Shown piece after piece: positions 30,657 to 43,094 of a DNA stretch of 64,000 nt. This stretch comes from Escherichia phage SKA64. A program made the position numbers and the translations under genes. The notes below the pieces were generated by a model, which worked only from the letters and a program-made list of their open reading frames with translations, had not been told where the DNA came from and did not search any database. Each line of letters starts with the position of its first letter. Position 1 is the first letter of the stretch. The stretch is from the sequence record OM362897.1; one strand, 5' to 3'.

Positions 30657-30673
30657 CTTCTTTTCCTCTTTGT

Positions 30674-30734
30674 GGGCTTGCTGTATTGCTCGCCCTACGT
30701 GATAAATAATAATAGAAAGGTGATCCGGTGTCAA
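30674..30734 (-). promoter_or_regulatory. promoter + leader hairpin cassette (variant)
   Basis: minus strand TTGACA...TATTAT-like -10, CACGTAGGGCG then weaker hairpin; upstream of 30288..30656. Confidence 0.45.
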
Positions 30735-30864
30735 TAGGTAGAATTGTAAAGATTCGATAGTTTATCTCTTTGATGTTTTGTTGTTTGATAGGTGTTAGCT
30801 ATCAATATATAGCGGGGTCGTCCGGTGATTACCTCCCCCGTTGCCAGTGCCGCCCGTTGAATAA

Positions 30865-30905
30865 GCATAACAAAAAACAGGACAAAAGCAAGCCCTGTTT
30901 TTGTA
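30865..30905 (-). terminator. rho-independent terminator (minus strand)
   Basis: aaacagg...cctgttt hairpin with U-run on minus strand after gene ending 30910. Confidence 0.45.
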
Positions 30906-30909
30906 AAGA

Positions 30910-31113
30910 TTAGATGATTTGCATATCCTCCACGATAATTTCTAATTTCCAAACAAGATGATCTAAGCTCCCTGATAAAAATGATTCCGATACATAACCG
31001 CCATCGGACACCGTAGCAAGGATCTCGCCATTTGCTTGCTCTTTGATTTGAACATCCAGGCGGTTAGCCTTTGCTTTGTTCAGGACGGCGATCAGGCGGT
31101 TAGCTGTAGTCAT
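30910..31113 (-). CDS. hypothetical protein
   Basis: ORF track; GGAAGGA RBS. Confidence 0.55.
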   Translation of the reverse strand: MTTANRLIAVLNKAKANRLDVQIKEQANGEILATVSDGGYVSESFLSGSLDHLVWKLEIIVEDMQII

Positions 31114-31135
31114 GGTGTTTTCCTTCCAGTTGTGA

Positions 31136-31191
31136 GCGGCACCATTGCCGCCCTACGTGATACATCTTACACTATCAGATACATTGTGCAA
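31136..31191 (-). promoter_or_regulatory. promoter + leader hairpin cassette
   Basis: minus strand TTGCAC, 16-17 bp, TAAGAT, then GTAGGG + hairpin gcggcaccattgccgc. Confidence 0.5.
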
Positions 31192-31197
31192 GCTATT

Positions 31198-31389
31198 TTA
31201 GATCTCGTCACCTATATAATCAGATCTGTTCTTCTCTGTCATACGTTTAAACAATTCTTGCATATGGCTGATAGCTTGCAATGTGTCTTCTTCCAGGCTT
31301 GAATCGAGATAATCAGGATCATTCTTTACCTTGCTATGGTTGTGATACCGCAACGCTGCTAATACCTTTCTAACTTGTTCTGCATTCAT
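31198..31389 (-). CDS. hypothetical protein
   Basis: ORF track; AAGGAG RBS. Confidence 0.55.
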   Translation of the reverse strand: MNAEQVRKVLAALRYHNHSKVKNDPDYLDSSLEEDTLQAISHMQELFKRMTEKNRSDYIGDEI

Positions 31390-31401
31390 TTTTATTACTC
31401 C

Positions 31402-31536
31402 TTAAAACCAGGTGCCAACCGTTTCCAATAGGTCACTGACTACCAGAACAACATTGATTAGCACATATTTAATCAGGAAGGGGATAAGCGCCAGCGTCGC
31501 TACTATGATCCCCATTGTGATGATTACCTTTCTCAT
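31402..31536 (-). CDS. 44 aa membrane peptide (not in ORF track)
   Basis: ATG 2 nt after upstream stop; MRKVIITMGIIVATLALIPFLIKYVLINVVLVV... Confidence 0.4.
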   Translation of the reverse strand: MRKVIITMGIIVATLALIPFLIKYVLINVVLVVSDLLETVGTWF

Positions 31537-31538
31537 CG

Positions 31539-31823
31539 TTAGCGGTTTACGTAAGCTTTACCGTTTACGGTCATCGGTATGGCTTCAAGGTCTGGATCTT
31601 CCTTAAGGTCGCGTGCAAGCTCACCGCACCGGACACCCTCGAATCCGTGGTATTCTGTTTCCCCGTCCTTAAAAGTTTTAGCGGCAAGGCATAGGCGATA
31701 ATTAACACCGATCCGGTTTACTGCGTTGATATCGGTTAACGTGATCGATTCCGGCAAATCGTTAGCCATGACAGGCGCGTTAATACCAACAACCAGGGCA
31801 ACTACTGCGATCATCTTTTTCAT
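31539..31823 (-). CDS. secreted protein with Sec signal peptide
   Basis: MKKMIAVVALVVGINAPVMA-ND; GAAGAGGA RBS. Confidence 0.55.
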   Translation of the reverse strand: MKKMIAVVALVVGINAPVMANDLPESITLTDINAVNRIGVNYRLCLAAKTFKDGETEYHGFEGVRCGELARDLKEDPDLEAIPMTVNGKAYVNR

Positions 31824-31858
31824 GTGTCTATCCTCTTCCTATTGCGTTTAATGGGGCG

Positions 31859-32095
31859 TTATTGATTGATGTTATGATGAAAGTTATTTTCTTCAACGGC
31901 TTTTAAAATAAAGGCTGTTACCGCTTTCGTGTCTACTTGTTCGAACGTATCAGAATAAGCCCAATAATGATCATCCCCTACTTTCGGCGGGTAAACCTGG
32001 ACAAGGAGATCGCCACCTGGTTGATCTATAAGCTCAACATGCAAGCCGGATGATTCGGCGGTTTTAACGGCGGTTAATACTGTTGCAATACTCAT
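31859..32095 (-). CDS. hypothetical protein
   Basis: ORF track. Confidence 0.5.
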   Translation of the reverse strand: MSIATVLTAVKTAESSGLHVELIDQPGGDLLVQVYPPKVGDDHYWAYSDTFEQVDTKAVTAFILKAVEENNFHHNINQ

Positions 32096-32140
32096 AATCT
32101 TTTCCCTTCCTGATGTGGGGCGTTGCCGCCCCTTTGTTGA

Positions 32141-32440
32141 TTAGATCGCTGTTTCCAGTAGTTCGGCTAACGTCTTACCGCCTGATAGTTGGTCTAACGT
32201 TTGCTCTTCTGGCAAGAAATTAGCGGATATTAAACCGACCTGGTTCCCTTTGTGCCAGTTAGCCTGACGGGTGATTCCATCCTTCAAGGATTTTACCGCC
32301 ATTGTGCAACCATCGCCAAATGATTCATTTTTATGGTCCATCACTTCATAAGCGCCCAGCTTGCTGCTGTTAGGCACCATTAACGCAAATACATCACCAA
32401 CAACCAGTTTTTCTACGGTAACAATAGCGATAGTTTCCAT
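32141..32440 (-). CDS. hypothetical protein
   Basis: ORF track; GAGGAAAA RBS. Confidence 0.55.
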   Translation of the reverse strand: METIAIVTVEKLVVGDVFALMVPNSSKLGAYEVMDHKNESFGDGCTMAVKSLKDGITRQANWHKGNQVGLISANFLPEEQTLDQLSGGKTLAELLETAI

Positions 32441-32459
32441 TTTGTTTTCCTCATTATCG

Positions 32460-32515
32460 GCGGCACCATTGCCGCCCTACGCATTAAATATAAATTATCT
32501 AAGAGATTAGATCAA
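32460..32515 (-). promoter_or_regulatory. promoter + leader hairpin cassette
   Basis: minus strand TTGATC ... TATTTA ... GCGTAGGG + gcggcaccattgccgc. Confidence 0.45.
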
Positions 32516-32518
32516 GGA

Positions 32519-32710
32519 TTATTTTGTAAAGATTACAGCTTCATCAAAATTTTCAACATAGTAAGCAAGTTTTTCATTTGCTGCAACCAGTTGTAAAAGT
32601 TGGTCGTAAGATAATCCATTGATCCCCTCTTCGTTGTTTAAAGCCTCGATGATTTCATCAACGGGCGCAAAAAACATGTTATTCGATTCCAGGTAGGTGA
32701 TAGTTTTCAT
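32519..32710 (-). CDS. hypothetical protein
   Basis: ORF track; AAAAGGTAAAAC RBS. Confidence 0.55.
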   Translation of the reverse strand: MKTITYLESNNMFFAPVDEIIEALNNEEGINGLSYDQLLQLVAANEKLAYYVENFDEAVIFTK

Positions 32711-32732
32711 AATGTTTTACCTTTTTCGGGGA

Positions 32733-32788
32733 GCGGCACCATTGCCGCCCTACGTGGTAAATATTAGCACACTGGCGATCTGTGTCAA
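32733..32788 (-). promoter_or_regulatory. promoter + leader hairpin cassette
   Basis: minus strand TTGACA, 16 bp, TAATAT, TTACCACGTAGGG + gcggcaccattgccgc. Confidence 0.55.
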
Positions 32789-32794
32789 TACTTT

Positions 32795-33181
32795 TTATTC
32801 AATATAAATCAAATTATCTTCACCAATGTAAGCCGACACGTTCGGCATAAACTTAGCTGCATTGGTTAGGCGGTTCGCCGTGTTAGTGGTGTATATTTCA
32901 GGGCGATCCCAAAAGCCTACGCCGTGACCGTTACGGGTAAAATGTAAATCATTCCCGATCTGGTTGGCTGTTGCGCCGTCGCTCATTGCCTCAGAGATAG
33001 CGGCAAGATTAGCATTAATAAAGGCTGTTACATCCTGGGCGATCCGTTCGTCCGCGCTAGGAGAAAAATCATAATCGTCTAAGTTATCAATAAAATTACC
33101 TTCATGATCCCTTGCTGATTCAGCAAAAATAAAGGCTTCTTTATAGCCGTTGATGATTTCAATAATGATTTCTGTTTTCAT
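32795..33181 (-). CDS. hypothetical protein
   Basis: ORF track; AAGAGAGA RBS. Confidence 0.55.
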   Translation of the reverse strand: MKTEIIIEIINGYKEAFIFAESARDHEGNFIDNLDDYDFSPSADERIAQDVTAFINANLAAISEAMSDGATANQIGNDLHFTRNGHGVGFWDRPEIYTTNTANRLTNAAKFMPNVSAYIGEDNLIYIE

Positions 33182-33195
33182 GTTGTGTCTCTCTT

Positions 33196-33300
33196 TTAGC
33201 CGATACCGTGGGAAGATAGGATCATGTTAGCCATAGTTGCAACCACTCCAACCGATAACGCCAGGCCCACTACTACGACCGTGAAAATTTTCTCTAACAT
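33196..33300 (-). CDS. 34 aa hydrophobic peptide (not in ORF track)
   Basis: MLEKIFTVVVVGLALSVGVVATMANMILSSHGIG between hairpin cassette and next gene. Confidence 0.4.
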   Translation of the reverse strand: MLEKIFTVVVVGLALSVGVVATMANMILSSHGIG

Positions 33301-33318
33301 GATTCTACCCTCATTAAT

Positions 33319-33380
33319 GGGCGTTGCCTTATTGCCCCGCCCTACGAAATACATTCTACCCGATTTATAATTGTTGTCAA
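33319..33380 (-). promoter_or_regulatory. promoter + leader hairpin cassette (variant stem)
   Basis: minus strand TTGACA ... TCGTAGGGCGGGG ... GC stem. Confidence 0.45.
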
Positions 33381-33381
33381 A

Positions 33382-33651
33382 TTATTTTTTCAAGCTTGAC
33401 CACTCAAAACACGGGGCGATCTCGTTAAAACTTGTGCCCTGTAAAGCACATAATTTTTTAGCAATAGCCGCCGTGACCTGGCGCTGTACGCGCGGATCTG
33501 CTACTGATTGGAGAAAGTAGGCGGCTTTATATGTGATCATGCTTTCACCTGTTTCCTTGTTAACATGATGCACTATTTTAGCCTTATCATCTTTTACCAG
33601 GATGTAACCGGATTCGATGGCCTTGATTGCAACGTCTAATGATATTTTCAT
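33382..33651 (-). CDS. hypothetical protein
   Basis: ORF track; intergenic hairpin ggcgggggagtattccccgcc upstream without promoter. Confidence 0.55.
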   Translation of the reverse strand: MKISLDVAIKAIESGYILVKDDKAKIVHHVNKETGESMITYKAAYFLQSVADPRVQRQVTAAIAKKLCALQGTSFNEIAPCFEWSSLKK

Positions 33652-33698
33652 GATTTACCTCTTTATTGACGGCGGGGAATACTCCCCCGCCTCATTAA

Positions 33699-33869
33699 TT
33701 ATTCTTCATCGTCGCCGTTATAGTATTCAATGCCATTTTCATCGGTTACGGTGATGTTAACGCCACCGATAGCAACACGATCACGGGCAAACGTCATAGC
33801 TTCATTTAAATCTTCAGACCAAAAAATATTGTGACCTTTGCGCGATACATAAAACATAGTCGGGATCAT
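33699..33869 (-). CDS. hypothetical protein (56 aa)
   Basis: internal ATG (MIPTMFY) after AGAAGAGAAAC; track extension covers hairpin. Confidence 0.5.
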   Translation of the reverse strand: MIPTMFYVSRKGHNIFWSEDLNEAMTFARDRVAIGGVNITVTDENGIEYYNGDDEE

Positions 33870-33890
33870 GATTTGTTTCTCTTCTGTTGT

Positions 33891-33953
33891 GAGCGGTGGA
33901 CCATTCCGCCGCTCTATGTAATAAACTTTACTACGTTGTTTGCCTACTGTCAA
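33891..33953 (-). promoter_or_regulatory. promoter + leader hairpin cassette
   Basis: minus strand TTGACA, 17 bp, TAAAGT, ACATAGAGCGG + gagcggtggaccattccgccgctc. Confidence 0.5.
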
Positions 33954-33954
33954 A

Positions 33955-34239
33955 TTATTTTTTAATGTTTTGCCCTACAAAATTGATCACTTCCTTAAGC
34001 TGTCTCTCTGTCATGATCGTACCTGGTAACTCTTCTTTAATTTCTTCTGGTAAATAGATATTACCGCGCCAGGTTAACAAACAACCGTTTTGATCTTCGC
34101 AGATAGAATAAGAAAACATCCACTCGCAATCATTCTCAAGCTCCCAAAAACACAAAAAGTCTTCTTTCCCTAAGTTTTCAACGGTTAAGCATAATCCGCG
34201 ACGTGCTGCATAATTAGTTAGGCTTTTTGTAATTTTCAT
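33955..34239 (-). CDS. hypothetical protein
   Basis: internal ATG (MKITKSL) after AAGAGAGAAAAATC. Confidence 0.55.
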   Translation of the reverse strand: MKITKSLTNYAARRGLCLTVENLGKEDFLCFWELENDCEWMFSYSICEDQNGCLLTWRGNIYLPEEIKEELPGTIMTERQLKEVINFVGQNIKK

Positions 34240-34260
34240 GATTTTTCTCTCTTCTTGTGA

Positions 34261-34316
34261 GCGGCACCATTGCCGCCCTACAAGATACATATTATCAGAC
34301 TACGCGGACTTGTCAA
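34261..34316 (-). promoter_or_regulatory. promoter + leader hairpin cassette
   Basis: minus strand TTGACA, 16 bp, TAATAT, CTTGTAGGG + gcggcaccattgccgc. Confidence 0.55.
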
Positions 34317-34317
34317 A

Positions 34318-34428
34318 CTATTTTTTCTTTTTCTTTGCTTCCAACCGTCTAAGGTTACGGCTTGACTTATTGCGCAAGGCGCTTAGATCGTCGTACCCTT
34401 TCCATGCTTGCATATCTTTCGGATTCAT
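34318..34428 (-). CDS. 36 aa basic small protein
   Basis: internal ATG of track ORF 34318..34590 after GGGGGATAAC; MNPKDMQAWKGYDDLSALRNKSSRNLRRLEAKKKKK. Confidence 0.4.
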   Translation of the reverse strand: MNPKDMQAWKGYDDLSALRNKSSRNLRRLEAKKKKK

Positions 34429-34438
34429 GTTATCCCCC

Positions 34439-34717
34439 TTAACGATTATAAACATTATGGATGGCTTCAAAGGCAAGATGACCATAAGCCGCCAAATCGG
34501 GATTGATCCAAGCGTTATCCAACATCGTTTCAAGGACTGTGGAATCATCGTATAAAGCATCATAGAAATCTGCACGGATGATCGTTTCAATGTCGTCCGG
34601 TGTTAGTTTGTCGTTCAACTTGCACACTGTTTCAACGTCAACACCAATTTTCCAATTTTGTAAATTAGTGGTTAACATTGTTTTCATTTCTTCGGTTGTT
34701 AATTTAACGATGGTCAT
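34439..34717 (-). CDS. hypothetical protein
   Basis: ORF track; AGAAGAGAGAAAAAATC RBS. Confidence 0.55.
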   Translation of the reverse strand: MTIVKLTTEEMKTMLTTNLQNWKIGVDVETVCKLNDKLTPDDIETIIRADFYDALYDDSTVLETMLDNAWINPDLAAYGHLAFEAIHNVYNR

Positions 34718-34738
34718 GATTTTTTCTCTCTTCTGTTA

Positions 34739-34796
34739 GGCGGGGCGCTTGTCGCCCCTATGTGATACATCTTATCAGGTTGATTCAGCTTGTCAA
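34739..34796 (-). promoter_or_regulatory. promoter + leader hairpin cassette
   Basis: minus strand TTGACA, 16 bp, TAAGAT, CACATAGGGG + ggcggggcgcttgtcgcccc. Confidence 0.55.
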
Positions 34797-34797
34797 A

Positions 34798-34959
34798 CTA
34801 TTTGTTAGCCGGATTATATGCCAGGACCGCGCCGCTTGCTTTCACACTTTCCGCTTCATAGTTGCGCAGATCGTTTTCTGTAAGATTGAGCGCGATCACT
34901 TCCTCGACTTCAACGCCAGCGACAAGGGCGATCTCTTTGATAATGTCTGTTATTTTCAT
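34798..34959 (-). CDS. hypothetical protein (53 aa)
   Basis: internal ATG (MKITDII) after TAAGGTG. Confidence 0.5.
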   Translation of the reverse strand: MKITDIIKEIALVAGVEVEEVIALNLTENDLRNYEAESVKASGAVLAYNPANK

Positions 34960-34969
34960 GGTGTGCACC

Positions 34970-35089
34970 TTATAAGATGATTGATAAGATAGTGACAACG
35001 AAAGCGATTATACTGATGGCAAATGTCATCTTTTTACCTTCGGATACTGCCGGATTCTCTACCGTGTATTCTACTGTGTACTTGCTCAT
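34970..35089 (-). CDS. 39 aa membrane peptide (not in ORF track)
   Basis: ATG after GAGAGGA; MSKYTVEYTVENPAVSEGKKMTFAISIIAFVVTILSIIL. Confidence 0.4.
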   Translation of the reverse strand: MSKYTVEYTVENPAVSEGKKMTFAISIIAFVVTILSIIL

Positions 35090-35112
35090 CGTGTAATCCT
35101 CTCGTTTGCTTT

Positions 35113-35169
35113 GGGAACTATTCCCGCCGCCCTATGAATTAAATATACACTATCTCAAAATGATTGCAA
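35113..35169 (-). promoter_or_regulatory. promoter + leader hairpin cassette
   Basis: minus strand TTGCAA, 17 bp, TATATT, TCATAGGGCGGCGGG + gggaactattccc. Confidence 0.5.
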
Positions 35170-35186
35170 GCCTTTTTCTAAATTAT

Positions 35187-35471
35187 TTATGCAGTAAACA
35201 AACCATCATTTACAACGGCGGCGATGATCTCCCGTGCCATTGATTCAGGGAAAGGGGCGCTATAGTCCTGGCTTGTCTCATCGGTATCAGTGATCCAATG
35301 ATAAGCTAACGAGTAAAAGCCTTTACTAACTGTTTTCAGTGAGATGATGATCACTCGGTCAAGCTTATTGGTGAATGTTGCCGTTAATGTGTTACCATCC
35401 TGCGTCATGTTGGACAAGTAAGCGGGATCATTAATCAGGGAAAACATTAGCACGGTGTTAGCTTTACTCAT
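35187..35471 (-). CDS. hypothetical protein
   Basis: internal ATG (MSKANTV) after TTGAGGA. Confidence 0.55.
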   Translation of the reverse strand: MSKANTVLMFSLINDPAYLSNMTQDGNTLTATFTNKLDRVIIISLKTVSKGFYSLAYHWITDTDETSQDYSAPFPESMAREIIAAVVNDGLFTA

Positions 35472-35492
35472 GATTGCATCCTCAAAGGGGCG

Positions 35493-35546
35493 CGGCACCA
35501 TTGCCGCCCTACACGATAACTATAACACAATATAAAACAGGATCAA
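35493..35546 (-). promoter_or_regulatory. promoter + leader hairpin cassette
   Basis: minus strand TTGATC ... TATAGT ... GTGTAGGG + gcggcaccattgccgc. Confidence 0.45.
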
Positions 35547-35749
35547 CCTTTATTTTTCCACGGTGTCAGCTTGTTAATCATTGGTGATAAATAGCGTTTA
35601 CCAACGTAAAACAGCACGCCAACTGATGCAACGGCGGCGATCTCATGCATAGCCGACGGGAAACGGGTATCATAATAAGATCCAATAATAGCAATAGCGG
35701 CAACGGCTGCAACGTCGATAATGATTTTTTCTTGTTTTGCGGTGATCAT
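35543..35749 (-). CDS. small membrane protein (68 aa)
   Basis: internal ATG (MITAKQEK) after AAAAAGGTAAA; hydrophobic AAVAAIAIIGSYY. Confidence 0.5.
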   Translation of the reverse strand: MITAKQEKIIIDVAAVAAIAIIGSYYDTRFPSAMHEIAAVASVGVLFYVGKRYLSPMINKLTPWKNKG

Positions 35750-35770
35750 AATATTTACCTTTTTGTATGG

Positions 35771-35829
35771 TGGGGGAACTATTCCCCGCCTGATGTAATA
35801 CAGTTTAACAGGTCCGGTTATGGTGTCAA
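35771..35829 (-). promoter_or_regulatory. promoter + leader hairpin cassette
   Basis: minus strand TTGACA, 16 bp, TAAACT, + ggcggggaatagttccccca hairpin. Confidence 0.5.
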
Positions 35830-35835
35830 CCACTT

Positions 35836-36021
35836 TTAAAGATATTTTATACTGATAACGTTTTCCGGTTTAACCTTGTTGTGATGTGCATCAACATAGA
35901 TCAAACCATCGTCAGAAAAGCCCAGGATCACGCCCTGCGCGATAAAACCGTATTCGTCACGGTAACGCACGGCTATTTTTAATGTTGCGTTGTAGGCTGT
36001 TTTAAGCTCGTTTAAAGTCAT
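35836..36021 (-). CDS. hypothetical protein
   Basis: ORF track. Confidence 0.5.
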   Translation of the reverse strand: MTLNELKTAYNATLKIAVRYRDEYGFIAQGVILGFSDDGLIYVDAHHNKVKPENVISIKYL

Positions 36022-36039
36022 TTTTGTTTATCCTCTACA

Positions 36040-36070
36040 TGTAAAAAGAAAGGGCGCTTGGTGCGCCCTT
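36040..36070 (-). terminator. rho-independent terminator (minus strand)
   Basis: GGGCGCaccaaGCGCCC hairpin followed on minus strand by UUUCUUUUU. Confidence 0.6.
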
Positions 36071-36076
36071 GTTATG

Positions 36077-36223
36077 TTAATTCTCTAAATCCATCCAATT
36101 ATATTTGTCACTCTTCCCGCGCTTTGTTTTATTGCGCTTGTCGCCTTTGCGGATCACTTCCTCATTCCAGGCCTTGCGGATCTTGGAAGATTGAATTTTT
36201 TCTGCACGATTAGATGTATTCAT
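36077..36223 (-). CDS. 48 aa basic small protein (not in ORF track)
   Basis: ATG after AAAGAGGAAAC; MNTSNRAEKIQSSKIRKAWNEEVIRKGDKRNKTKRGKSDKYNWMDLEN. Confidence 0.45.
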   Translation of the reverse strand: MNTSNRAEKIQSSKIRKAWNEEVIRKGDKRNKTKRGKSDKYNWMDLEN

Positions 36224-36243
36224 TTTGTTTCCTCTTTATATGA

Positions 36244-36296
36244 GCGGCACCATTGCCGCTATATTATTAATTTAAACTGTTTTGTAAAATTGTCAA
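36244..36296 (-). promoter_or_regulatory. promoter + leader hairpin cassette
   Basis: minus strand TTGACA ... TAAATT ... gcggcaatggtgccgc. Confidence 0.5.
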
Positions 36297-36302
36297 GGTT
36301 TA

Positions 36303-36656
36303 TCATTCATAAGAGCAAGCAAGGATCACGCCTGCAATATAAAGCCAATAATTTTCCCTTTCTCGTTGGATTTTATCATCGCTGCTATTCTCTTTAATGT
36401 ATCCCCAGGATGTTAACAAGCGATCAATTTCCCAATATTCGAAAGCGATATTAATATCTGATGGCAAACCTTGTAACCATGATGCTATTGCTCTGATAAT
36501 GTTATGATCGTAACGTTTTTGGTTATCGGTATACCAATACTCGGATTTAAAACAGCGCATCAATTCCGCGATCTTCTCTTTATCTTCTGTGATGCCATAC
36601 TTGCTATAATCAATTGAGGCCAGAATATAAAGTTTAATTGCATTTTGTGCTTTCAT
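36303..36656 (-). CDS. hypothetical protein
   Basis: ORF track; AGAGAGACACC RBS. Confidence 0.55.
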   Translation of the reverse strand: MKAQNAIKLYILASIDYSKYGITEDKEKIAELMRCFKSEYWYTDNQKRYDHNIIRAIASWLQGLPSDINIAFEYWEIDRLLTSWGYIKENSSDDKIQRERENYWLYIAGVILACSYE

Positions 36657-36676
36657 GGTGTCTCTCTTCTGTTGTT

Positions 36677-36733
36677 GGCGGCACCATTGCCGCCCTACTT
36701 GTTACATCTTACTGGATTTTTAAAACTTGTCAA
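36677..36733 (-). promoter_or_regulatory. promoter + leader hairpin cassette
   Basis: minus strand TTGACA, 16 bp, TAAGAT, AACAAGTAGGG + ggcggcaatggtgccgcc. Confidence 0.55.
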
Positions 36734-36955
36734 TCATTTTTCTACTATCATTTGATACCCTGTTTCAACGTTAGAAAACACTGTTATCCCGTCCTGGCGT
36801 TCACTCATTAACATACAAGGCGCTAACATCCTTTCTACTGCCTTGCACTCGTTGTAAACGGCGGTTATATCTCCTGCTGCCTTGTCTTCTGTAGTAAATG
36901 TCTCATTTACGTAAACTTGACCAGCGACAACGGCGACAATAGCGAAAGTGATCAT
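36734..36955 (-). CDS. hypothetical protein
   Basis: ORF track; AAGGAAAC RBS; shares first codons ATGATCACTTTCGCTA with gene starting 37196. Confidence 0.55.
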   Translation of the reverse strand: MITFAIVAVVAGQVYVNETFTTEDKAAGDITAVYNECKAVERMLAPCMLMSERQDGITVFSNVETGYQMIVEK

Positions 36956-36989
36956 GATGTTTCCTTGTTAGTAGTGGTTTCTCTTCTCT

Positions 36990-37025
36990 ATAGCGCCCAT
37001 TATAGGCGCTATAACGAAAAGTCAA
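36990..37025 (-). promoter_or_regulatory. promoter + hairpin cassette (variant; -10 inside stem)
   Basis: minus strand TTGACT then atagcgccTATAATgggcgctat palindrome. Confidence 0.4.
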
Positions 37026-37028
37026 CTA

Positions 37029-37196
37029 TTATTTTTTAAGGCTTAAAGTGCCTAGCTTATCAGCGTGACGCAGACCAGGGAAGATCCATTTTCCTGATTC
37101 ATCTTTCACCGGGGCTTTAAAAGTAGCGCCCAGGTTGGCGGCGTTAACTTTACGTGCAACGTTGCGAGCGGCTTCACGGGTAGCGAAAGTGATCAT
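37029..37196 (-). CDS. 55 aa small protein (not in ORF track)
   Basis: ATG after GAGGAAAATATC; MITFATREAARNVARKVNAANLGATFKAPVKDESGKW... Confidence 0.45.
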   Translation of the reverse strand: MITFATREAARNVARKVNAANLGATFKAPVKDESGKWIFPGLRHADKLGTLSLKK

Positions 37197-37220
37197 GATA
37201 TTTTCCTCTTCTCTTTGTTA

Positions 37221-37282
37221 GGCGGTGGACCATTCCGCCGCCTTGATGTAATACAGTTTACTTTATTTTTGCAGTATTGCAA
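37221..37282 (-). promoter_or_regulatory. promoter + leader hairpin cassette
   Basis: minus strand TTGCAA ... hairpin ggcggcggaatggtccaccgcc. Confidence 0.4.
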
Positions 37283-37288
37283 GCGGTT

Positions 37289-37504
37289 TTATGAAATAAA
37301 TGTCAAAGTAAAATCATAATCTTTTGACAGTTTATATTGCACCTTGTTACCGTATATGTCACCTTTACGTAAAGATCCACGGATACCGATAACATCCTTC
37401 ACGTCTTTTAAATTTTTCACGCCTGTAATGTCTTTGTTGAAATACTCGTCATCTGAAAATAAAACTTGCTTTGCATTTTTTAACAAGGTGCGGATATTAG
37501 CCAT
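37289..37504 (-). CDS. hypothetical protein
   Basis: internal ATG (MANIRTLL) after AAGAGAGATTATC. Confidence 0.5.
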   Translation of the reverse strand: MANIRTLLKNAKQVLFSDDEYFNKDITGVKNLKDVKDVIGIRGSLRKGDIYGNKVQYKLSKDYDFTLTFIS

Positions 37505-37526
37505 TTTGATAATCTCTCTTACTAGG

Positions 37527-37584
37527 GGCGGCAATAGTGCCGCCCTATGAATTACATTTTACTAATTTTAGTTGTCTTGTCAAT
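37527..37584 (-). promoter_or_regulatory. promoter + leader hairpin cassette
   Basis: minus strand TTGACA, 16 bp, TAAAAT, TCATAGGG + ggcggcactattgccgcc. Confidence 0.55.
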
Positions 37585-37591
37585 ATTATTT

Positions 37592-37819
37592 TTAGTTTAA
37601 TTGATCCAGGCATAACAGACGATCAACGTTGAGATCGGTCAGGCTAATCGTTGGCACCTGGTAGGATTCGATGTACTCAACGCTCGACCATTGCCCAAAG
37701 TTAGCGACCGCCCAGCTATTCAATGAGGAGTGAAGATCATCCCCTTTCTTCTCGGTGATAACTGCTACTACCTGGGAGATTCCAACCGTGCCGGATACGC
37801 GAACAATAACGATAGCCAT
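37592..37819 (-). CDS. hypothetical protein
   Basis: ORF track; AAAGAAAGGTTATC RBS. Confidence 0.5.
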   Translation of the reverse strand: MAIVIVRVSGTVGISQVVAVITEKKGDDLHSSLNSWAVANFGQWSSVEYIESYQVPTISLTDLNVDRLLCLDQLN

Positions 37820-37841
37820 AATGATAACCTTTCTTTGATTT

Positions 37842-37902
37842 GGCGGGAAACCATTTCCCGCCCTATGCGATAAACTACACCAGATTAAAAAACGTTGTCA
37901 AC
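37842..37902 (-). promoter_or_regulatory. promoter + leader hairpin cassette
   Basis: minus strand TTGACA ... GCATAGGG + ggcgggaaatggtttcccgcc. Confidence 0.5.
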
Positions 37903-37910
37903 TGCTTTTA

Positions 37911-38150
37911 TTACATTCCTACCATAGCGGCACGGATTGCAGTTTTACTATACTTGAAACCATCAGGTGTATGAGTGATTCCATCCTGTTTTAATCTGTA
38001 GCACATCAGATCCGCCGCTTTATCTTTATTGCCGCACTCATTTATTAAACCTACAGCGTATAAGTATAACGATTCATCATTATTAATCCAAAGGCTTACA
38101 TTCCAATGAGTTTTATTTTTGTGACCGTTGTACATTTTAGATTTAGCCAT
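37911..38150 (-). CDS. hypothetical protein
   Basis: ORF track; AAAGAGATTAAC RBS. Confidence 0.5.
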   Translation of the reverse strand: MAKSKMYNGHKNKTHWNVSLWINNDESLYLYAVGLINECGNKDKAADLMCYRLKQDGITHTPDGFKYSKTAIRAAMVGM

Positions 38151-38174
38151 GATGTTAATCTCTTTTTCAGTGAG

Positions 38175-38232
38175 GCGGGAACTATTCCCGCTCTCGATAT
38201 AAGTATTATATGCTTTTTATTCGTGCTGTCAA
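38175..38232 (-). promoter_or_regulatory. promoter + leader hairpin cassette
   Basis: minus strand TTGACA ... TAATAC ... gcgggaatagttcccgc. Confidence 0.5.
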
Positions 38233-38238
38233 TGCTTT

Positions 38239-38604
38239 TTATAAATCTTTTTTACGTTTTACATCGCTTGCATGACTGTATACAGCGATCCCATTATCAC
38301 GGCAAAAGCGGGAAAGGTAGGCATAATTTGAAAACTCTTTACCTTCCAGGTTGATAACCTTGCTAAACTCTTCTAGGGCGACGGTATCAAAATGATCACC
38401 ATAGCCATATTGAAACGGAACGTTAACCACCTCGATCAGTTTACCGCCGATCTCAACGTCAACCATTAAAGAAAAATATGTATTACCGTAGGACCGTTGA
38501 AACCAGCGACGGGCGCTAATATGCACCGCCTCAATGCTGGATAATTCAATTTTAGCCGTGTTAGCCAGGGTAGCATAAGCGGAAACATTAATATTAATAG
38601 CCAT
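38239..38604 (-). CDS. hypothetical protein
   Basis: internal ATG (MAININ) preferred. Confidence 0.5.
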   Translation of the reverse strand: MAININVSAYATLANTAKIELSSIEAVHISARRWFQRSYGNTYFSLMVDVEIGGKLIEVVNVPFQYGYGDHFDTVALEEFSKVINLEGKEFSNYAYLSRFCRDNGIAVYSHASDVKRKKDL

Positions 38605-38636
38605 GATGATAACCTTTTTCATTGTTGGCGGGAAAC

Positions 38637-38696
38637 CACTTCCCGCCCTATGTGGTAAACTATACTAGAATTTTAAACAATGTCAACCGTTTTTAT
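38637..38696 (-). promoter_or_regulatory. promoter + leader hairpin cassette
   Basis: minus strand TTGACA ... TAGTTT ... CACATAGGG + ggcgggaagtggtttcccgcc. Confidence 0.5.
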
Positions 38697-39055
38697 TCGT
38701 AAATTTTACCGCTTTCAGCCCATACCATAACGCGGCGCATACTATCCCAAGTGTTTTGATCCAGGTTTAAGCCGTGCAACTCTTCGGTACTTTCCAGACC
38801 AGGTACCGCCTTGTTGTAAGTCGCATATAAGCGCCCTTGATACTCATACGCCAGAGTAAGATCCGTTTGAATCATCTTTTTAAGCATAGCATTAAGCATC
38901 ATATTAGCGGCATGTTGATCACGTTTTAGCGGTAACATATCAATAAAGGCGCGATAAGCTGAAACATGAATATCAACCGTTTCACGTGGTAAATTTTTCA
39001 TGTCATCGCGGAAAGATACCAGATTAAACATGATAGTATTGATTTGCTTGCTCAT
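38693..39055 (-). CDS. hypothetical protein
   Basis: internal ATG (MSKQINTI) preferred; track extension covers hairpin. Confidence 0.5.
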   Translation of the reverse strand: MSKQINTIMFNLVSFRDDMKNLPRETVDIHVSAYRAFIDMLPLKRDQHAANMMLNAMLKKMIQTDLTLAYEYQGRLYATYNKAVPGLESTEELHGLNLDQNTWDSMRRVMVWAESGKIYE

Positions 39056-39076
39056 TGTGTTACCCTTTTTTGTTTT

Positions 39077-39138
39077 GGCGGGGAAGTATTCCACCGCCCT
39101 ATGTGTTACATCTTATCAGATTAAAAAACGTTGTCAAG
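39077..39138 (-). promoter_or_regulatory. promoter + leader hairpin cassette
   Basis: minus strand TTGACA, 16-17 bp, TAAGAT, ACACATAGGG + ggcggtggaatacttccccgcc. Confidence 0.55.
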
Positions 39139-39155
39139 AATATTTTTAGATAATT

Positions 39156-39437
39156 TTAACTGTATGATCCACATCGTTCGCAGTAGTGATCATCGTCGTC
39201 ATCAGCTACCTGGCTGATAAAGTGATCTACTTTTGCTTTTAGGTTATTATAATTATTTTCTACTTCCTTTAATCGCTCCTGATAGTATCCCAGGGCTTCA
39301 ATATACGCCGCCTCTTCTGTTTTTTCACGCATGGCTAAATTCATGCCGCGCGTATCATCATACAGCCAAAAACCATCGGTGCACTCACTCATTGAAAGGG
39401 TAGGGCTTAACTCTTTATGATTAATTACCTTGCTCAT
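39156..39437 (-). CDS. hypothetical protein
   Basis: internal ATG (MSKVINHK); C-terminal CERCGS. Confidence 0.5.
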   Translation of the reverse strand: MSKVINHKELSPTLSMSECTDGFWLYDDTRGMNLAMREKTEEAAYIEALGYYQERLKEVENNYNNLKAKVDHFISQVADDDDDHYCERCGSYS

Positions 39438-39447
39438 AGTGTGCGCC

Positions 39448-39552
39448 TTATAGAATGATTGAAACAACAATTGCTACAGTGATCCACACTGGAACGGCTA
39501 ACAAAATAGCGTTAATCGTTCCAACCGTCAAACTATTTTCTTTATTAATCAT
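39448..39552 (-). CDS. 34 aa membrane peptide (not in ORF track)
   Basis: MINKENSLTVGTINAILLAVPVWITVAIVVSIIL directly downstream of a cassette. Confidence 0.4.
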   Translation of the reverse strand: MINKENSLTVGTINAILLAVPVWITVAIVVSIIL

Positions 39553-39581
39553 TGTAAGCCTCTTGCATAATTTCACTATGA

Positions 39582-39638
39582 GCGGCACCATTGCCGCCCT
39601 ACGTGGTAAATATTATGCCAGTGGCGGCGATATGTCAA
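39582..39638 (-). promoter_or_regulatory. promoter + leader hairpin cassette
   Basis: minus strand TTGACA ... TAATAT, TTACCACGTAGGG + gcggcaatggtgccgc. Confidence 0.55.
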
Positions 39639-40201
39639 AGACTATTTTCAAAGTTTTCTAGTGCGATCCTTTTTTCTTCCTCTGTTGGCTGATAATCAGG
39701 AAAAGCATCAACACACAACAACGGCGGGATCTCTTCGTACTCTTCCTCTTCCGTTGTCTCCTCGTCTTCCTCCTGGGCTATGGCTGCAATTTTGGCTAAT
39801 TTTCTTTCAGCTTGAATCAATTTACCATCAAGTACGTTTTTTGCCATATTGTAAGCGGTCCAGGTTATGCGCTTACTTTCTAATGCTTCCTCAAGCGCCG
39901 CTATCTTGCTGGGGTATTCATCCAGGACACGAAAAGCCGGATCAACTTTGTACAAAGGATTATCTTTCGCGCCGTCGCTCGCATCTTCCGCACTGGATAA
40001 ATCAGCGTTACCATTTGCCAGCCAGCCAGGGCGCACATAACGCGCTTTTACGTTGCCGTTACTACGTGCTAATCTGTTACCTATTTGCTCACCGCTATAT
40101 CCCGTGGATTCATCGATAAGATGATCGGTAATGATGCGCGGATCATCTGCTTCATGTTTTACCCAAGACTGGATCACATATTCGCGGCCCATATTAACCA
40201 C
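39635..40201 (-). CDS. hypothetical protein with acidic C-terminal region
   Basis: ORF track; AAAAGGTGG RBS. Confidence 0.55.
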   Translation of the reverse strand: MVNMGREYVIQSWVKHEADDPRIITDHLIDESTGYSGEQIGNRLARSNGNVKARYVRPGWLANGNADLSSAEDASDGAKDNPLYKVDPAFRVLDEYPSKIAALEEALESKRITWTAYNMAKNVLDGKLIQAERKLAKIAAIAQEEDEETTEEEEYEEIPPLLCVDAFPDYQPTEEEKRIALENFENSL

Positions 40202-40451
40202 CTTTTTTCAACAATTGGCATACTTTAAAAAGACTTGCTGAATCCTTGCAAGGGTAGAAAGATGTACGATAGTCACGTACGCCAACCTTGCGGATCTCGA
40301 TGTTCTCGCATGTTGTTTGATCAAAGATATTTATTTCATCATGCCCCCTTATATAAACATAGTGGGGATGTATTAACGCATATTTTGCTAATCTGTAAAA
40401 AGCGTTATCTTTGAACGCGATCACGTGACCTTTTAATTTGATGTAAAACAT
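40194..40451 (-). CDS. hypothetical protein
   Basis: ORF track; AAGGTGG RBS. Confidence 0.5.
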   Translation of the reverse strand: MFYIKLKGHVIAFKDNAFYRLAKYALIHPHYVYIRGHDEINIFDQTTCENIEIRKVGVRDYRTSFYPCKDSASLFKVCQLLKKGG

Positions 40452-40468
40452 TCTACCACCTTACAAAT

Positions 40469-40523
40469 AGCGGGAACTATTCCCGCTTTATGTAACATAT
40501 TAACAAATTATTCGTTAATGTCA
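40469..40523 (-). promoter_or_regulatory. promoter + leader hairpin cassette
   Basis: minus strand TTGACA ... TAATAT ... gcgggaatagttcccgc. Confidence 0.5.
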
Positions 40524-40527
40524 AGCC

Positions 40528-40800
40528 TTAAAGCAAAAACGCTACATCTTGCGCTTTTAGTGTAGTATCAACCATTTTCGGGCTTTTATAATCAACAAAG
40601 CGCGCGGTTTTTTCAATAGCGAAACCGAGATAATCTTGTTTATTGAATTTACATTCTTTCTTAAATGTTTCCCGCGCCACGGTGATCGCTGCGTCCAGGG
40701 ATAAACGCCCGTCAATGTTGATATTTGCGAAAGATCCGCCACCGCTCATAGGTTTACCAGTGGTGCCAGTTACGATCATTGTTGCGCTATATGATGCCAT
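40528..40800 (-). CDS. hypothetical protein
   Basis: ORF track; AGAAGAGAGAAATC RBS. Confidence 0.55.
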   Translation of the reverse strand: MASYSATMIVTGTTGKPMSGGGSFANINIDGRLSLDAAITVARETFKKECKFNKQDYLGFAIEKTARFVDYKSPKMVDTTLKAQDVAFLL

Positions 40801-40821
40801 GATGATTTCTCTCTTCTGTTA

Positions 40822-40879
40822 GGCGGGGCGCTTGTCGCCCCTATGTGATACATCTTATCAGGTTGTGGCTTGTTGTCAA
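40822..40879 (-). promoter_or_regulatory. promoter + leader hairpin cassette
   Basis: minus strand TTGACA ... TAAGAT, CACATAGGGG + ggggcgacaagcgccccgcc. Confidence 0.55.
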
Positions 40880-40884
40880 GACTT

Positions 40885-41082
40885 TTATTCTATTCCTGCA
40901 ATCTGCTTAACGCGCTTGCATTTTGCAGTATGCTGATCTTCTGTAATTACTCCCATTTCTAACAGTGAATCAATGAAAGATAAAACCGTTTCATGATCAT
41001 CTTGGGGATGACTGAACTCAGTAAAACCGTTTACTATTACGTTGATTTGTCCAGCTTTCGCCACAATGTGCAATGTTGCCAT
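40885..41082 (-). CDS. hypothetical protein (65 aa)
   Basis: internal ATG (MATLHIV) after GGAG. Confidence 0.5.
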   Translation of the reverse strand: MATLHIVAKAGQINVIVNGFTEFSHPQDDHETVLSFIDSLLEMGVITEDQHTAKCKRVKQIAGIE

Positions 41083-41103
41083 GATCTTAACTCCAAATAG
41101 TGA

Positions 41104-41160
41104 GCGGCACCATTGCCGCCCTACGTGGTAAATATTATGCCGCCACCTGGCGAACGTCAA
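41104..41160 (-). promoter_or_regulatory. promoter + leader hairpin cassette
   Basis: minus strand TTGACG ... TAATAT, TTACCACGTAGGG + gcggcaatggtgccgc. Confidence 0.5.
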
Positions 41161-41268
41161 CCACTTTTTCAATCTTTTTATTTTCTTTTTGCTTGCTATA
41201 TATAAAGGAAAGGGCTATCATCTTTCTACCGCGCCAACCAGGGCGCACAACAAAGAAAGGGCGACACC

Positions 41269-41535
41269 ATGACAAATACTACATTACACCTTATGCACTC
41301 ATTGGGCTGGCAAGGCGGCACGGTGCACCAGGTAGCAAGCGCAACGGGCTTAAAGGTTGAAACCGTTCTCAACCTATCAGATTATAAGGTCGAGGATAGT
41401 TATCAATTACAAAGTTACACGGGCGGTTTTACCTGGGCGCGTGAAGGTGGGAAAGAAAGCAATATACCACATTGGGGAAAAGGTGATATTCATTTTTGGC
41501 TAGGTGTCCTGACCTGGCAAGAAAACAAAAAATAA
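41269..41535 (+). CDS. hypothetical protein (lone + strand gene inside - block)
   Basis: ORF track; AAAGGG upstream; no clear promoter assigned. Confidence 0.45.
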   Translation: MTNTTLHLMHSLGWQGGTVHQVASATGLKVETVLNLSDYKVEDSYQLQSYTGGFTWAREGGKESNIPHWGKGDIHFWLGVLTWQENKK

Positions 41536-41537
41536 TC

Positions 41538-41566
41538 TTGACAAGCCCAGGGATCGGGCTTATACT
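41538..41566 (+). promoter_or_regulatory. sigma70-like promoter (alternatively part of a weak terminator)
   Basis: TTGACA, 17 bp, TATACT; spacer itself is a small hairpin agccc...gggct. Confidence 0.35.
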
Positions 41567-41572
41567 GTTTTA

Positions 41573-41680
41573 CATACAGAAGAGGAAGCGCCACCCCACG
41601 GCGTAAAGGCGGGGCTAACATACCAGGGGCACTGGTTGGAAGGTTGATCGCCGGTAGGCTGGGCGCTATATATTTGTAAA
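41573..41680 (+). ncRNA. candidate structured small RNA
   Basis: GC-rich non-coding segment after promoter; closing stem AGCGCC (about 41587-41592) with GGCGCT (about 41662-41667), internal CCCC/GGGG and CCAG/CTGG stems, then AUAUAUUUG. Confidence 0.3.
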
Positions 41681-41785
41681 GAAATGTAAAGATAAAATAA
41701 TCGCTTGCTTTCCTGGGTGGATCTGTTATTCTTATTACATGGCGAGGGGACACGGGAGCGCGAGACAAACACCGCCCCTGCGCGT

Positions 41786-41903
41786 CATTCTCTAAATGAG
41801 AATGATTATCATTTACCTTATCAAATAAGAATCAATCTCATTTATAAACCTAAATGCGAATCATTATCATTTGCATTTCCATATGAGAACTCTTCTCATT
41901 CCC
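41786..41903. promoter_or_regulatory. cluster of Fur-box-like AT-rich operator motifs
   Basis: GAGAATGATTATCATTTAC (41798-41816; 15 of 19 matches to GATAATGATAATCATTATC), GCGAATCATTATCATTTGC (41856-41874), palindromes CATTCTCtaaatGAGAATG and ATGAGAActcTTCTCAT. Confidence 0.35.
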
Positions 41904-41921
41904 ATCTGCATAAATTTTTGT

Positions 41922-42098
41922 AAACTTTAAATTTTGCTTTTGTACTTTCATTTTTGTAAAAGCAAAAAAACTTTAAATACTGTGGGCGCGCAAAATTTTT
42001 AAAATTTTCCTTGATTTTTGAGTTTTGTTTTGTATCTGACATTTTAAGATAATTTTCCTAAACTTTAAATTTTGGTTTTCAACTTTCACTTTTGTAAA
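41922..42098. repeat. AT-rich 39 bp direct repeat pair
   Basis: AAACTTTAAATTTTGCTTTTGTACTTTCATTTTTGTAAA (41922-41960) vs AAACTTTAAATTTTGGTTTTCAACTTTCACTTTTGTAAA (42060-42098). Confidence 0.5.
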
Positions 42099-42261
42099 TT
42101 CTTAAAAAGTTTAAATAATTTGAGGGATTTTTGAGATAATAGGTAATGGGAATTTGAGATAACCTTTAATCTTATTGGCAGACCTTCAGGAACCCACTCA
42201 GATCGAATCCTAGTGATGCAAACTGAAAAAGACAAGGGTTTGTATAGGACAAAATAATAGG

Positions 42262-42290
42262 CTCTCTACGGTGCTGTAGGAGCCTTATTT
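42262..42290 (-). terminator. rho-independent terminator (bidirectional-capable)
   Basis: ggctctctacggtgctgtaggagcc hairpin with T/U-rich tracts on both sides; downstream of minus gene ending 42341. Confidence 0.55.
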
Positions 42291-42340
42291 CTGTGCTACA
42301 AAGTGACGCCTTTGTTCTAAAAATGAAAAAAGTTAAAATA

Positions 42341-42883
42341 TCACAAATATCGTCTTTGCGGTATTTTGTCTGGGAAAAGTATTTCGATCAGTTTGTTATG
42401 ATATTTACCTAAAAGATTTTGCCCTTTCCAGTTGACCGGATTTAGCACCCCTGGTTCATACATTCCCATTCCAATACCGTAAACCTTATCGTAAGGACTT
42501 GCTTCAACAAACGTTTTGTATTGGTAAAGGTGTAAGTCTGCATACAAATCTGGATTCTGTACATATTTCAAGCATAAACCTCGCATAACAATACGCTCAC
42601 GGTTCTCTTCCCATACATTGTTATCAAAATCCGACACTGCCCTACCCATACGTTTGTAATAAGCCTGGATCTTCTCATCTTTCCGTATCAAACTATGAGT
42701 CAGAATAGCCTGTGCAGTGTTGTGATCATTAAAAAGCAAAGCTTTACGCCACATCATGTATTGTTCGACACAATTAAATGTCTGATTGTAACCTGGTTCG
42801 GTTTCTGTAAAGGGTGCAATATACCAATTACTAAAAACATCTTTATGTGAAAAGAAGAATACATAATCATCAGTTATTCGCAT
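42341..42883 (-). CDS. NADAR (YbiA-like) domain protein
   Basis: FFFSHKDVFSNWYIAPF, VEQYMMWRKAL, LCLKYVQNPDLYADLHLY, FVEASPYDKVYGIGMG match YbiA/NADAR blocks. Confidence 0.8.
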   Translation of the reverse strand: MRITDDYVFFFSHKDVFSNWYIAPFTETEPGYNQTFNCVEQYMMWRKALLFNDHNTAQAILTHSLIRKDEKIQAYYKRMGRAVSDFDNNVWEENRERIVMRGLCLKYVQNPDLYADLHLYQYKTFVEASPYDKVYGIGMGMYEPGVLNPVNWKGQNLLGKYHNKLIEILFPDKIPQRRYL

Positions 42884-43094
42884 TTTTCATACTCTCCAAA
42901 ATTTCACGTTGCCCTTGCTGATAGGCTTTCATCAGAACTACTTTAAGGTTTGTCTCCAAGAGGTCTTCATTGTAATTATACCGCTCCACAACATATGTCA
43001 ATTCATCATAAAGATCAAGAACGGGGTAGAATACAGGGTTATCTGCTAAACGTGCCATAGTTTCTCCTTTGTTAATCCATCCACCAGTAGCCAT
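42870..43094 (-). CDS. hypothetical protein
   Basis: ORF track. Confidence 0.5.
   Translation of the reverse strand: MATGGWINKGETMARLADNPVFYPVLDLYDELTYVVERYNYNEDLLETNLKVVLMKAYQQGQREILESMKNANN

Follow-up and report, generated by a model that had tools for sequence, protein, structure and literature searches.

Near-optimal predicted Fur boxes in the terminal repeat and in a conserved non-coding locus of Escherichia phage SKA64

Fur boxes belong to the classical control elements of host iron genes, and the only role known for them in phages is at cargo genes such as stx1. What, then, would such boxes be doing in phage DNA that encodes no protein? The question is raised by a 64,000-nucleotide stretch of Escherichia phage SKA64 (sequence record OM362897.1; 'the window' hereafter, along which all positions are counted), in which a first-pass annotation noticed AT-rich, Fur-box-like palindromes at 41786-41903 and in a second large non-coding locus (locus A), and offered an iron-responsive operator, a phage-repressor operator or coincidence as explanations. 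We find near-optimal, phased Fur boxes in the internal locus, further boxes in the direct terminal repeat of the virion genome, and the same boxes in the injection-stop region of T5 and beside the cos site of lambda.

A Fur weight matrix was learned from host DNA by an unseeded Gibbs sampler with random starts, run on 16 Fur-regulated intergenic regions of E. coli K-12 MG1655 (fepA-fes, fepD-entS, fepB-entC, fhuA, cirA, ryhB, fecI, fecA, tonB, exbB, fiu, fhuE, fhuF, feoA, sufA and fur), and the outcome was the known Fur motif, AATGATAATCATTATCATT. The matrix is specific, as all matches of at least 14 bits in 110 kb of K-12 DNA fall inside the Fur-regulated promoter regions used. Its maximum is 25.9 bits; under leave-one-out scoring the native K-12 sites reach at most 20.8 bits, with a median of 15.5. 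The top nine matches of the 64-kb window all lie within the two non-coding loci (Table 1), and three of them, at 23.4-24.8 bits, stand above the best native site used. Eight matches reach 15 bits in the whole window against 0.245 expected from dinucleotide shuffles (0 of 200 shuffles reach eight), which is the matrix-against-shuffle check that the first-pass annotation had proposed, and when each locus, or the 131-bp array alone, is shuffled in the same way none of 2000 shuffles reaches the observed count. The exact tail probability of a score of at least 23 bits is 3.5e-9 per position, equivalent to ~2e-4 such sites per 64 kb, where three are seen. In the 99%-identical genome of iGC_PHA_EC001 no matrix match among the further 84.9 kb exceeds 12.3 bits, so the strong boxes are limited to the two loci genome-wide.

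Measured against validated sites, the boxes score 17.9-24.8 bits and match the consensus at 15-16 of 19 positions. The 18 nt at 28686-28703 are the same as in the K-12 ryhB operator, 41796-41813 shares 17 of 18 positions with the fecI operator, and the GAGAAT half-sites of the phage boxes are found also in native K-12 operators (ryhB, AATGAGAATGATTATTATT; fecI, TATGAGAATGGTTATCATT; fhuA, entC, exbB, feoA and fhuE). The 19-mer singled out at first pass, GAGAATGATTATCATTTAC, does match the 19-bp consensus at 15 of 19 positions as stated (41798-41816, + strand), and at 16 of 19 on the - strand. Its cited relatives likewise exist, at 41856-41874 (13-14/19), at 28503-28521 within 28501-28526 (16/19) and at 28688-28706 (13-14/19), as do the overlapping palindromes; 41798-41816 and 28503-28521 are the joint best consensus matches in the 64 kb (16/19). 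To these the present analysis adds the boxes starting at 41824 and 41882, their exact 29-bp phasing, a third locus-A box at 29461 and the terminal repeat in locus A.

The internal array consists of four boxes exactly 29 bp apart, with centres at 41804, 41833, 41862 and 41891. Written in a 29-nt register it becomes four units of the form AAATGAGAATnATTCTCATTT, a spacing confirmed by repeat search; Tandem Repeats Finder reported no repeats over 41500-42400 because the units are too diverged. The third position is occupied by an overlapping pair lying within a 27-bp palindrome, AAATGCGAAT-N7-ATTTGCATTT, and the weak fourth box is missing or degenerate in phage anhysbys. Native Fur clusters have reported offsets of 3 or 6 bp (Chen et al. 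2007, PMC2189734); in the window, partners offset by 6 bp occur at 41853/41859 and 28506/28512, and the main array is spaced at 29 bp. Upstream of the array are a strong sigma-70 promoter and a conserved element of ~225 bp. This element has no Rfam family, three compensatory pairs only and a net covariation energy of zero, and is a candidate new non-coding RNA or, alternatively, a DNA-level element such as an origin.

Locus A contains the physical ends of the genome. In the Schickermooser record the first 329 bp equal the last 329 bp exactly and map to 28449-28777 at 97% identity, and a terminal repeat of 328 bp was reported by Korf et al. (PMC6563267); several Phapecoctavirus records start or stop inside locus A, several of them starting at ~28450-28460. 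Boxes A1 and A2 lie inside this direct terminal repeat, and both virion ends therefore carry them. A1 is 57 bp from one boundary of the repeat and is conserved in phAPEC8 and Schickermooser, in which A3 is also present. A promoter for a RyhB-like, Fur-controlled small RNA at the box starting at 28685 was considered and rejected, since this box has a -10 in common with ryhB and no -35.

Table 1. Positions and scores of the boxes and associated features in the two non-coding loci of the window
Feature	Position	Strand	Score (bits)	Remarks
Direct terminal repeat of virion genome (physical ends)	28449-28777			329 bp
Fur box A1 and partner	28506-28530		23.5 and 15.5	boxes 28506-28524 and 28512-28530, 6-bp offset
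Fur box A2, TATGAGAATGATTATTATT	28685-28703		18.9	74 bp from the other terminal-repeat boundary
Fur box A3, GATGATAATGGTTATCATT	29461-29479		17.9	unique non-coding DNA, ~685 bp inside the right-end repeat
Sigma-70 promoter, strong, TTGACA-17-TATACT	41538-41566	+		11/12 match; reads toward the array, which is 222 bp downstream
Conserved ~225-bp element	41572-41794	+		between promoter and B1; candidate non-coding RNA or DNA element
Fur box B1, AATGAGAATGATTATCATT	41795-41813		24.8 (of 25.9)	first array box; 16/19 to consensus
Fur box B2, AATAAGAATCAATCTCATT	41824-41842		18.1	centre 29 bp from B1
Fur box B3	41853-41877		23.4 and 17.5	overlapping pair, 41853-41871 and 41859-41877, 6-bp offset
Fur box B4 (weak), TATGAGAACTCTTCTCATT	41882-41900		11.9	in 29-bp register
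AT-rich segment	41913-42122			two 72-nt direct repeats (41913-41984, 42051-42122), 3' of array
Hairpin terminator	42247-42285			closes the non-coding locus; read from sequence; annotated rho-independent terminator in phage ASO2A

Conservation of the array locus extends well beyond its close relatives. The stretch 41560-41815 has matches in 359 phage records of the Stephanstirmvirinae and Vequintavirinae, and we compared the orthologous loci of six diverged phages, alia (Justusliebigvirus), Klebsiella KP2025, VivaForever, Pectobacterium phiTE, Cronobacter CR8 and Salmonella SSE121, each of which carries one to five boxes of 17-24.8 bits directly 3' of the conserved element. The 29-bp spacing is seen again in phiTE, CR8 and KP2025. 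Among the seven aligned phages, which all have a box or box-like sequence at the alignment position of B1, the box there reaches at least 17 bits in four and is weaker or degenerate in three, and a promoter-like element occupies the same place throughout, degenerate in SSE121 and clear in the other six. Relatives differ in the number and sequence of their boxes but retain the motif; sequences that change while the motif stays are the pattern expected from selection on binding.

The half-sites themselves indicate what kind of element is being kept. Across 24 distinct boxes from nine sources, position 6 of the half-site is occupied by G in 27 cases, by T in 19 and by A in two, and its pairings (G/T 12, G/G 7, T/T 3) are near those computed by hand from the counts under independence (10.8, 7.6 and 3.8). 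The boxes are 7-1-7 dyads with independently fitting half-sites, imperfect as palindromes in 23 of 24 cases; the one perfect palindrome, AATGAGAATGATTCTCATT, is found in SSE121 and in the T5-like phage EASG3. Because a selected stem would covary, half-sites that vary independently point to the site of a dimeric protein and not to a hairpin.

The same boxes are found in phages of quite different descent. Window positions 41823-41878, covering B2 and B3, show 82-86% identity to T5-like phages, and T5 itself (AY587007.1) has matrix matches of 19.1-24.8 bits at 9473, 9577, 9612 and 9618, spanning 9473-9636. These coincide with the annotated palindromes E, G and I and direct repeat C of Repeat Region 3 in the left terminal repeat, conserved palindromes at whose function, according to Davison, one cannot guess (10.1101/866236). 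The calculated shear point of first-step transfer is at 9618 (Davison, 10.1101/866236), and the T5 boxes straddle it and adjoin the 7.9% nick. In EASG3 the match falls in a 1.7-kb untranslated region with four boxes of 21-24 bits. That region (1690-1805 of the segment compared) also holds two DnaA boxes, TTATCCACA, and a perfect LexA box, CTGTATAAATATACAG, and to judge from these motifs it resembles an assembly of sites for host transcription factors. The open reading frames (ORFs) of the T5 pre-early region (first 12 kb) gave no homologue by tblastn against a Phapecoctavirus genome.

A second instance is the lambdoid cos region. The IMG/VR viral contig L134 is such a region, with a 24.8-bit box at 491-509 that is followed after 5 nt by GGGTCCT and after ~35 nt by a cosN-like GGGCGGCGG, and Nu1-like and gpA terminase genes lie downstream; GGGTCCT we take to be cosQ, reportedly identified as such by Wieczorek and Feiss (2001). 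Upstream of nohA in the K-12 Qin prophage the box GATGATAATCATTATCACT (4592-4610 of the segment compared), GGGTCCT and cosN follow in the same order, with the lambda/Qin box 6 nt from the GGGTCCT motif and ~35 nt from cosN, and both phage lambda and the annotated 'cos site' of DE3 match this segment at 98.9% identity. The nohB (25.3 bits) and nohA (22.3 bits) sites are among the strongest E. coli Fur clusters of Chen et al. (PMC2189734), who gel-shifted a nohA oligonucleotide with 150 nM Fur and treated it as a nohA promoter site; a nohA fragment had earlier been selected in vivo through Fur binding or titration, going by the account of Vassinova and Kozyrev (2000) in that paper (PMC2189734). 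With our host matrix the nohA box scores 15.5 bits, below eight boxes of the window. We found no literature that treats the nohA/cos Fur box as a phage feature.

Uncultivated viruses broaden the distribution further. An exact-pattern scan of IMG/VR for AATGAKAATNATTMTCATT gave at least 120 contigs, and the following counts refer to the 120 matches listed. Sixty contigs have two or more boxes of at least 16 bits, often as arrays (eight boxes in 380 bp in contig L047; spacings of 29, 29 and 31 in contig L128), and eight resemble T5-like or rV5-like references. The ORF-free 24% of the sequence holds 175 of the 220 boxes of at least 18 bits (80%). Terminase large subunit is the commonest family beside the arrays, and by hand tally 18 of 42 whole contigs have the match within 10% of an end, against 8.4 expected; we regard both enrichments as hints only, since detection bias for viral contigs and assembly breaks at repeats could explain them.

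We conclude, with a probability of roughly one half for the reading as a whole, that the boxes are genuine high-affinity host Fur sites, kept by selection in cis-acting non-coding DNA and acting locally. The parts of this reading differ in strength. We would very much expect Fur to bind the boxes in vitro, for which the weaker lambda/Qin cos box is an indirect precedent, and between local action in cis and titration in trans we regard the former as having about an even chance. It is favoured because the positions are more regular than a decoy needs: after the conserved element, at the terminal-repeat boundaries, at cosQ and at the T5 stop point. Iron-loaded Fur dimers would occupy each 19-bp box. 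Fur footprints cover ~30 bp, and as the 29-bp spacing is about one footprint, the four boxes could hold a contiguous Fur coat of ~115 bp. Such a coat, 222 bp past the strong promoter, might serve in iron-replete cells as an iron-dependent roadblock or boundary, dividing the conserved element from the AT-rich repeats beyond. In the terminal repeat, with one box 57-75 bp from each boundary, Fur would be bound beside the DNA ends and might act as an accessory architectural factor in the packaging cuts, in entry, or in synapsis of the two repeats; IHF has a comparable accessory role at lambda cosB. Taken singly, the roadblock and the end-architecture roles are each tentative suggestions, more likely wrong than right. 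A wider generalisation is about as doubtful as the less secure of these, namely that many unrelated phages have recruited Fur in cis at genome ends and other cis sites, that the T5 array could be part of the injection stop signal, and that entry, end processing or origin activity might be coupled to host iron status or Fur occupancy; the Phapecoctavirus terminal repeat, the lambda cosQ flank and the arrays upstream of terminase genes are the examples that suggest it.

Several observations weigh against our preferred reading. Near-maximal scores and tandem arrays are equally expected of a titration decoy, and SSE121 retains one box only, so an array is not required in every case. None of the boxes can be shown to overlap a -35/-10 pair, the promoter-like matches that overlap or lie near boxes being weak (e.g. 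41841-41870, at 9 of 12). The G at position 6, 56% in the phage boxes, is 19% in host sites, which prefer T (62%). We also know of no report in the T5 and lambda literature that Fur is needed for growth, and any role in cis may consequently be subtle or conditional. The idea of an iron-responsive operator survives in part: the identity of the boxes as Fur sites is strongly supported at the level of sequence, but their geometry does not bear out an operator of the flanking genes, since the array lies between convergent gene ends, 222 bp past a promoter, and the locus-A boxes cited at first pass lie in a terminal repeat.

The most serious alternative, which we consider rather unlikely, is that the boxes have no local role and form a Fur sponge in trans, the replicated genomes, in hundreds of copies with about nine or more strong boxes each, titrating the few thousand Fur molecules of the cell. 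Iron uptake and RyhB-mediated iron sparing would thereby be de-repressed and would feed the iron-dependent ribonucleotide reductase of the phage. Scores near the matrix maximum and above every native operator used are what a sponge calls for, as are non-overlapping, arrayed boxes packed into DNA tolerant of insertions, the turnover of box number and sequence between relatives, and arrays that are common in unrelated viral contigs, mostly in ORF-free DNA among the matches listed. Multicopy Fur boxes do de-repress the regulon in vivo, as far as the work of Vassinova and Kozyrev is described in PMC2189734, and the phage encodes NrdA and NrdB. A class I ribonucleotide reductase implies an iron demand that is relevant to any Fur-related function; its subunits are encoded at 15321-19361 of iGC_PHA_EC001, with an HNH endonuclease gene between them. 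For a sponge, however, the positional regularities (the conserved element, the symmetry of the terminal repeat, cosQ and the T5 stop point) are superfluous, and lone boxes, as in lambda and SSE121, titrate little. T5 would also gain little from de-repression of host genes, as it degrades host DNA early (Davison, 10.1101/866236).

It is less likely still that the binder is not Fur, but a phage protein or another host regulator preferring the Fur-like AATGAGAATnATTCTCATT. This alternative is kept mainly because of the G preference at position 6, where G is also present in both halves of the sole perfect palindrome, and the difference could reflect a related but different binder. Yet the GAGAAT half-sites are frequent in genuine K-12 operators, the phage boxes mirror the host matrix at all positions other than 6, and the motif occurs in phages with no common neighbouring protein and also in the lambdoid cos region, where Fur binding has been shown (PMC2189734). 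A phage repressor, as proposed at first pass, finds no support either, as unrelated phages carry the same boxes and no helix-turn-helix or other DNA-binding domain was matched among the flanking ORFs, a search that leaves room for remote homologues and more distant genes. That the palindromes act instead as nucleic-acid structures, either intrinsic terminators in RNA or cruciforms in DNA, we consider highly improbable. The consensus fold does pair the halves of B1, and 41784-41806 scans as terminator-like, with a 9-pair stem overlapping B1 and then a T-rich stretch, the sole call of its kind; against this, the half-sites show no covariation, a G-A mismatch would arise in the stems of half of the boxes, these stems are rich in A and T and have loops of just 1-3 nt, and the near-complete match to the host Fur matrix is not expected of hairpins. 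Chance similarity, to which the AT-richness of the loci (36% GC against 39% for the whole window) might lend itself, is excluded by the matrix ranking, the shuffles, the exact tail probability and conservation of the boxes across genera.

On sequence identity both non-coding loci match Phapecoctavirus genomes, the phAPEC8-like myoviruses of the Stephanstirmvirinae: window positions 41500-42350 are 99.4% identical to Escherichia phage iGC_PHA_EC001 and Klebsiella phage ZCKP1, and locus A (28165-29730) is ~96% identical to phAPEC8 and relatives. Records labelled as Campylobacter, Acinetobacter and Pseudomonas phages (B15, ABPW7 and PsgM04F) are 84-98% identical to these coliphages, and their host labels look doubtful. 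The array locus is an 805-bp gap, 41536-42340, with convergent gene ends on both sides, an 88-residue ORF on the + strand ending at 41535 and, on the - strand, one with a NADAR domain that ends at 42341; a CapR/endonuclease-like protein is encoded nearby, and in KP2025 the locus is flanked by DNA ligase on one side and replicative helicase on the other. Public records annotate both loci with 'repeat_region' and some terminators, and otherwise essentially nothing, and the rV5 genome paper has just a 'non-coding' box. An Rfam search of 27500-43000 returned no credible family, and consensus scans of the two loci gave no DnaA or LexA sites and a single IHF match, at 28607 in locus A. When E. coli genomes were searched distantly with the array, three marginal matches (E = 4) were all that resulted, so it is no copy of a host promoter. 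The pseudo-ToxI locus of phiTE lies outside this non-coding region.

The array locus may, from its sequence features, be an origin of replication. Looked at as an iteron-type origin, the locus has 72-nt AT-rich repeats 3' of the array and an AAA ATPase gene ~2 kb off, but the boxes themselves are dyads, DnaA boxes are absent from both loci, and no initiator gene was identified. The phiTE equivalent of the 72-nt repeat segment has many iteron-like CGAGACC repeats (1890-2370 of the segment compared). Beyond the array, 41913-42135 also contains, besides the 72-nt repeats, a repeated TTTGAGATAA. Elsewhere in the window an intergenic element of the form CACATAGGGGCGACAAGCGCCCCGCC...AACAGAAGAGAGAAA is present in at least two copies (34723-34786 and 40806-40866, - strand), with Rfam matches at chance level only (E 0.5-0.8), and looks like a terminator hairpin and ribosome-binding region reused between genes.

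The motif is already known; its context, arrangement and breadth are new. No link between Fur boxes and T5, rV5-like or phAPEC8-like phages, and no account of such arrays in a phage genome, came up in a literature search that had most subscription journals outside its reach. That a virulent phage carries near-optimal, phased Fur boxes in a conserved non-coding locus and in its terminal repeat is of interest in itself, and the same boxes account for the injection-stop palindromes of T5, the cosQ-adjacent site of lambda and the arrays of uncultivated viral contigs. Should Fur bind there, a testable handle would exist on the large non-coding loci of rV5-like and phAPEC8-like phages, and a testable hypothesis for the ~60-year-old problem of two-step injection in T5. 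It would also suggest a tie between iron status and phage development, or between iron status and the host's iron regulon in infected cells, which would be relevant to phage therapy in iron-limited host tissues.

Compared with classical Fur operators (ryhB, fecI, fhuA, entC and iucA), the phage boxes share the 19-bp dyad motif, the 18-nt identity with ryhB and, in some cases, partners offset by 6 bp. They differ in that the classical sites are the -35/-10 regions of protein-coding genes and the phage boxes lie elsewhere, in that the phage array is non-overlapping with a fixed 29 bp whereas native clusters are offset by 3 or 6 bp, and in top scores that exceed all 16 native sites used. Repeat Region 3 of T5 has the same boxes, within a terminal repeat and conserved among T5-like phages, but there the spacing is irregular (35 and 104 bp) and the boxes are flanked by DnaA boxes, which the two loci of the window lack, and T5 is an unrelated siphovirus with two-step injection. 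At cosQ of lambda and lambdoid prophages, too, a Fur box lies within bases of a packaging signal, in cis-acting non-coding DNA at the phage terminus, although it is single or an overlapping pair and not an array, and its phages are temperate and of cos type. Two other systems are comparable by functional analogy only, with no homology implied: IHF at lambda cosB and attP, where the phage uses an abundant DNA-binding protein of the host in cis at sites of packaging or at ends, and the titration of Fur by boxes in multicopy, which can de-repress its regulon.

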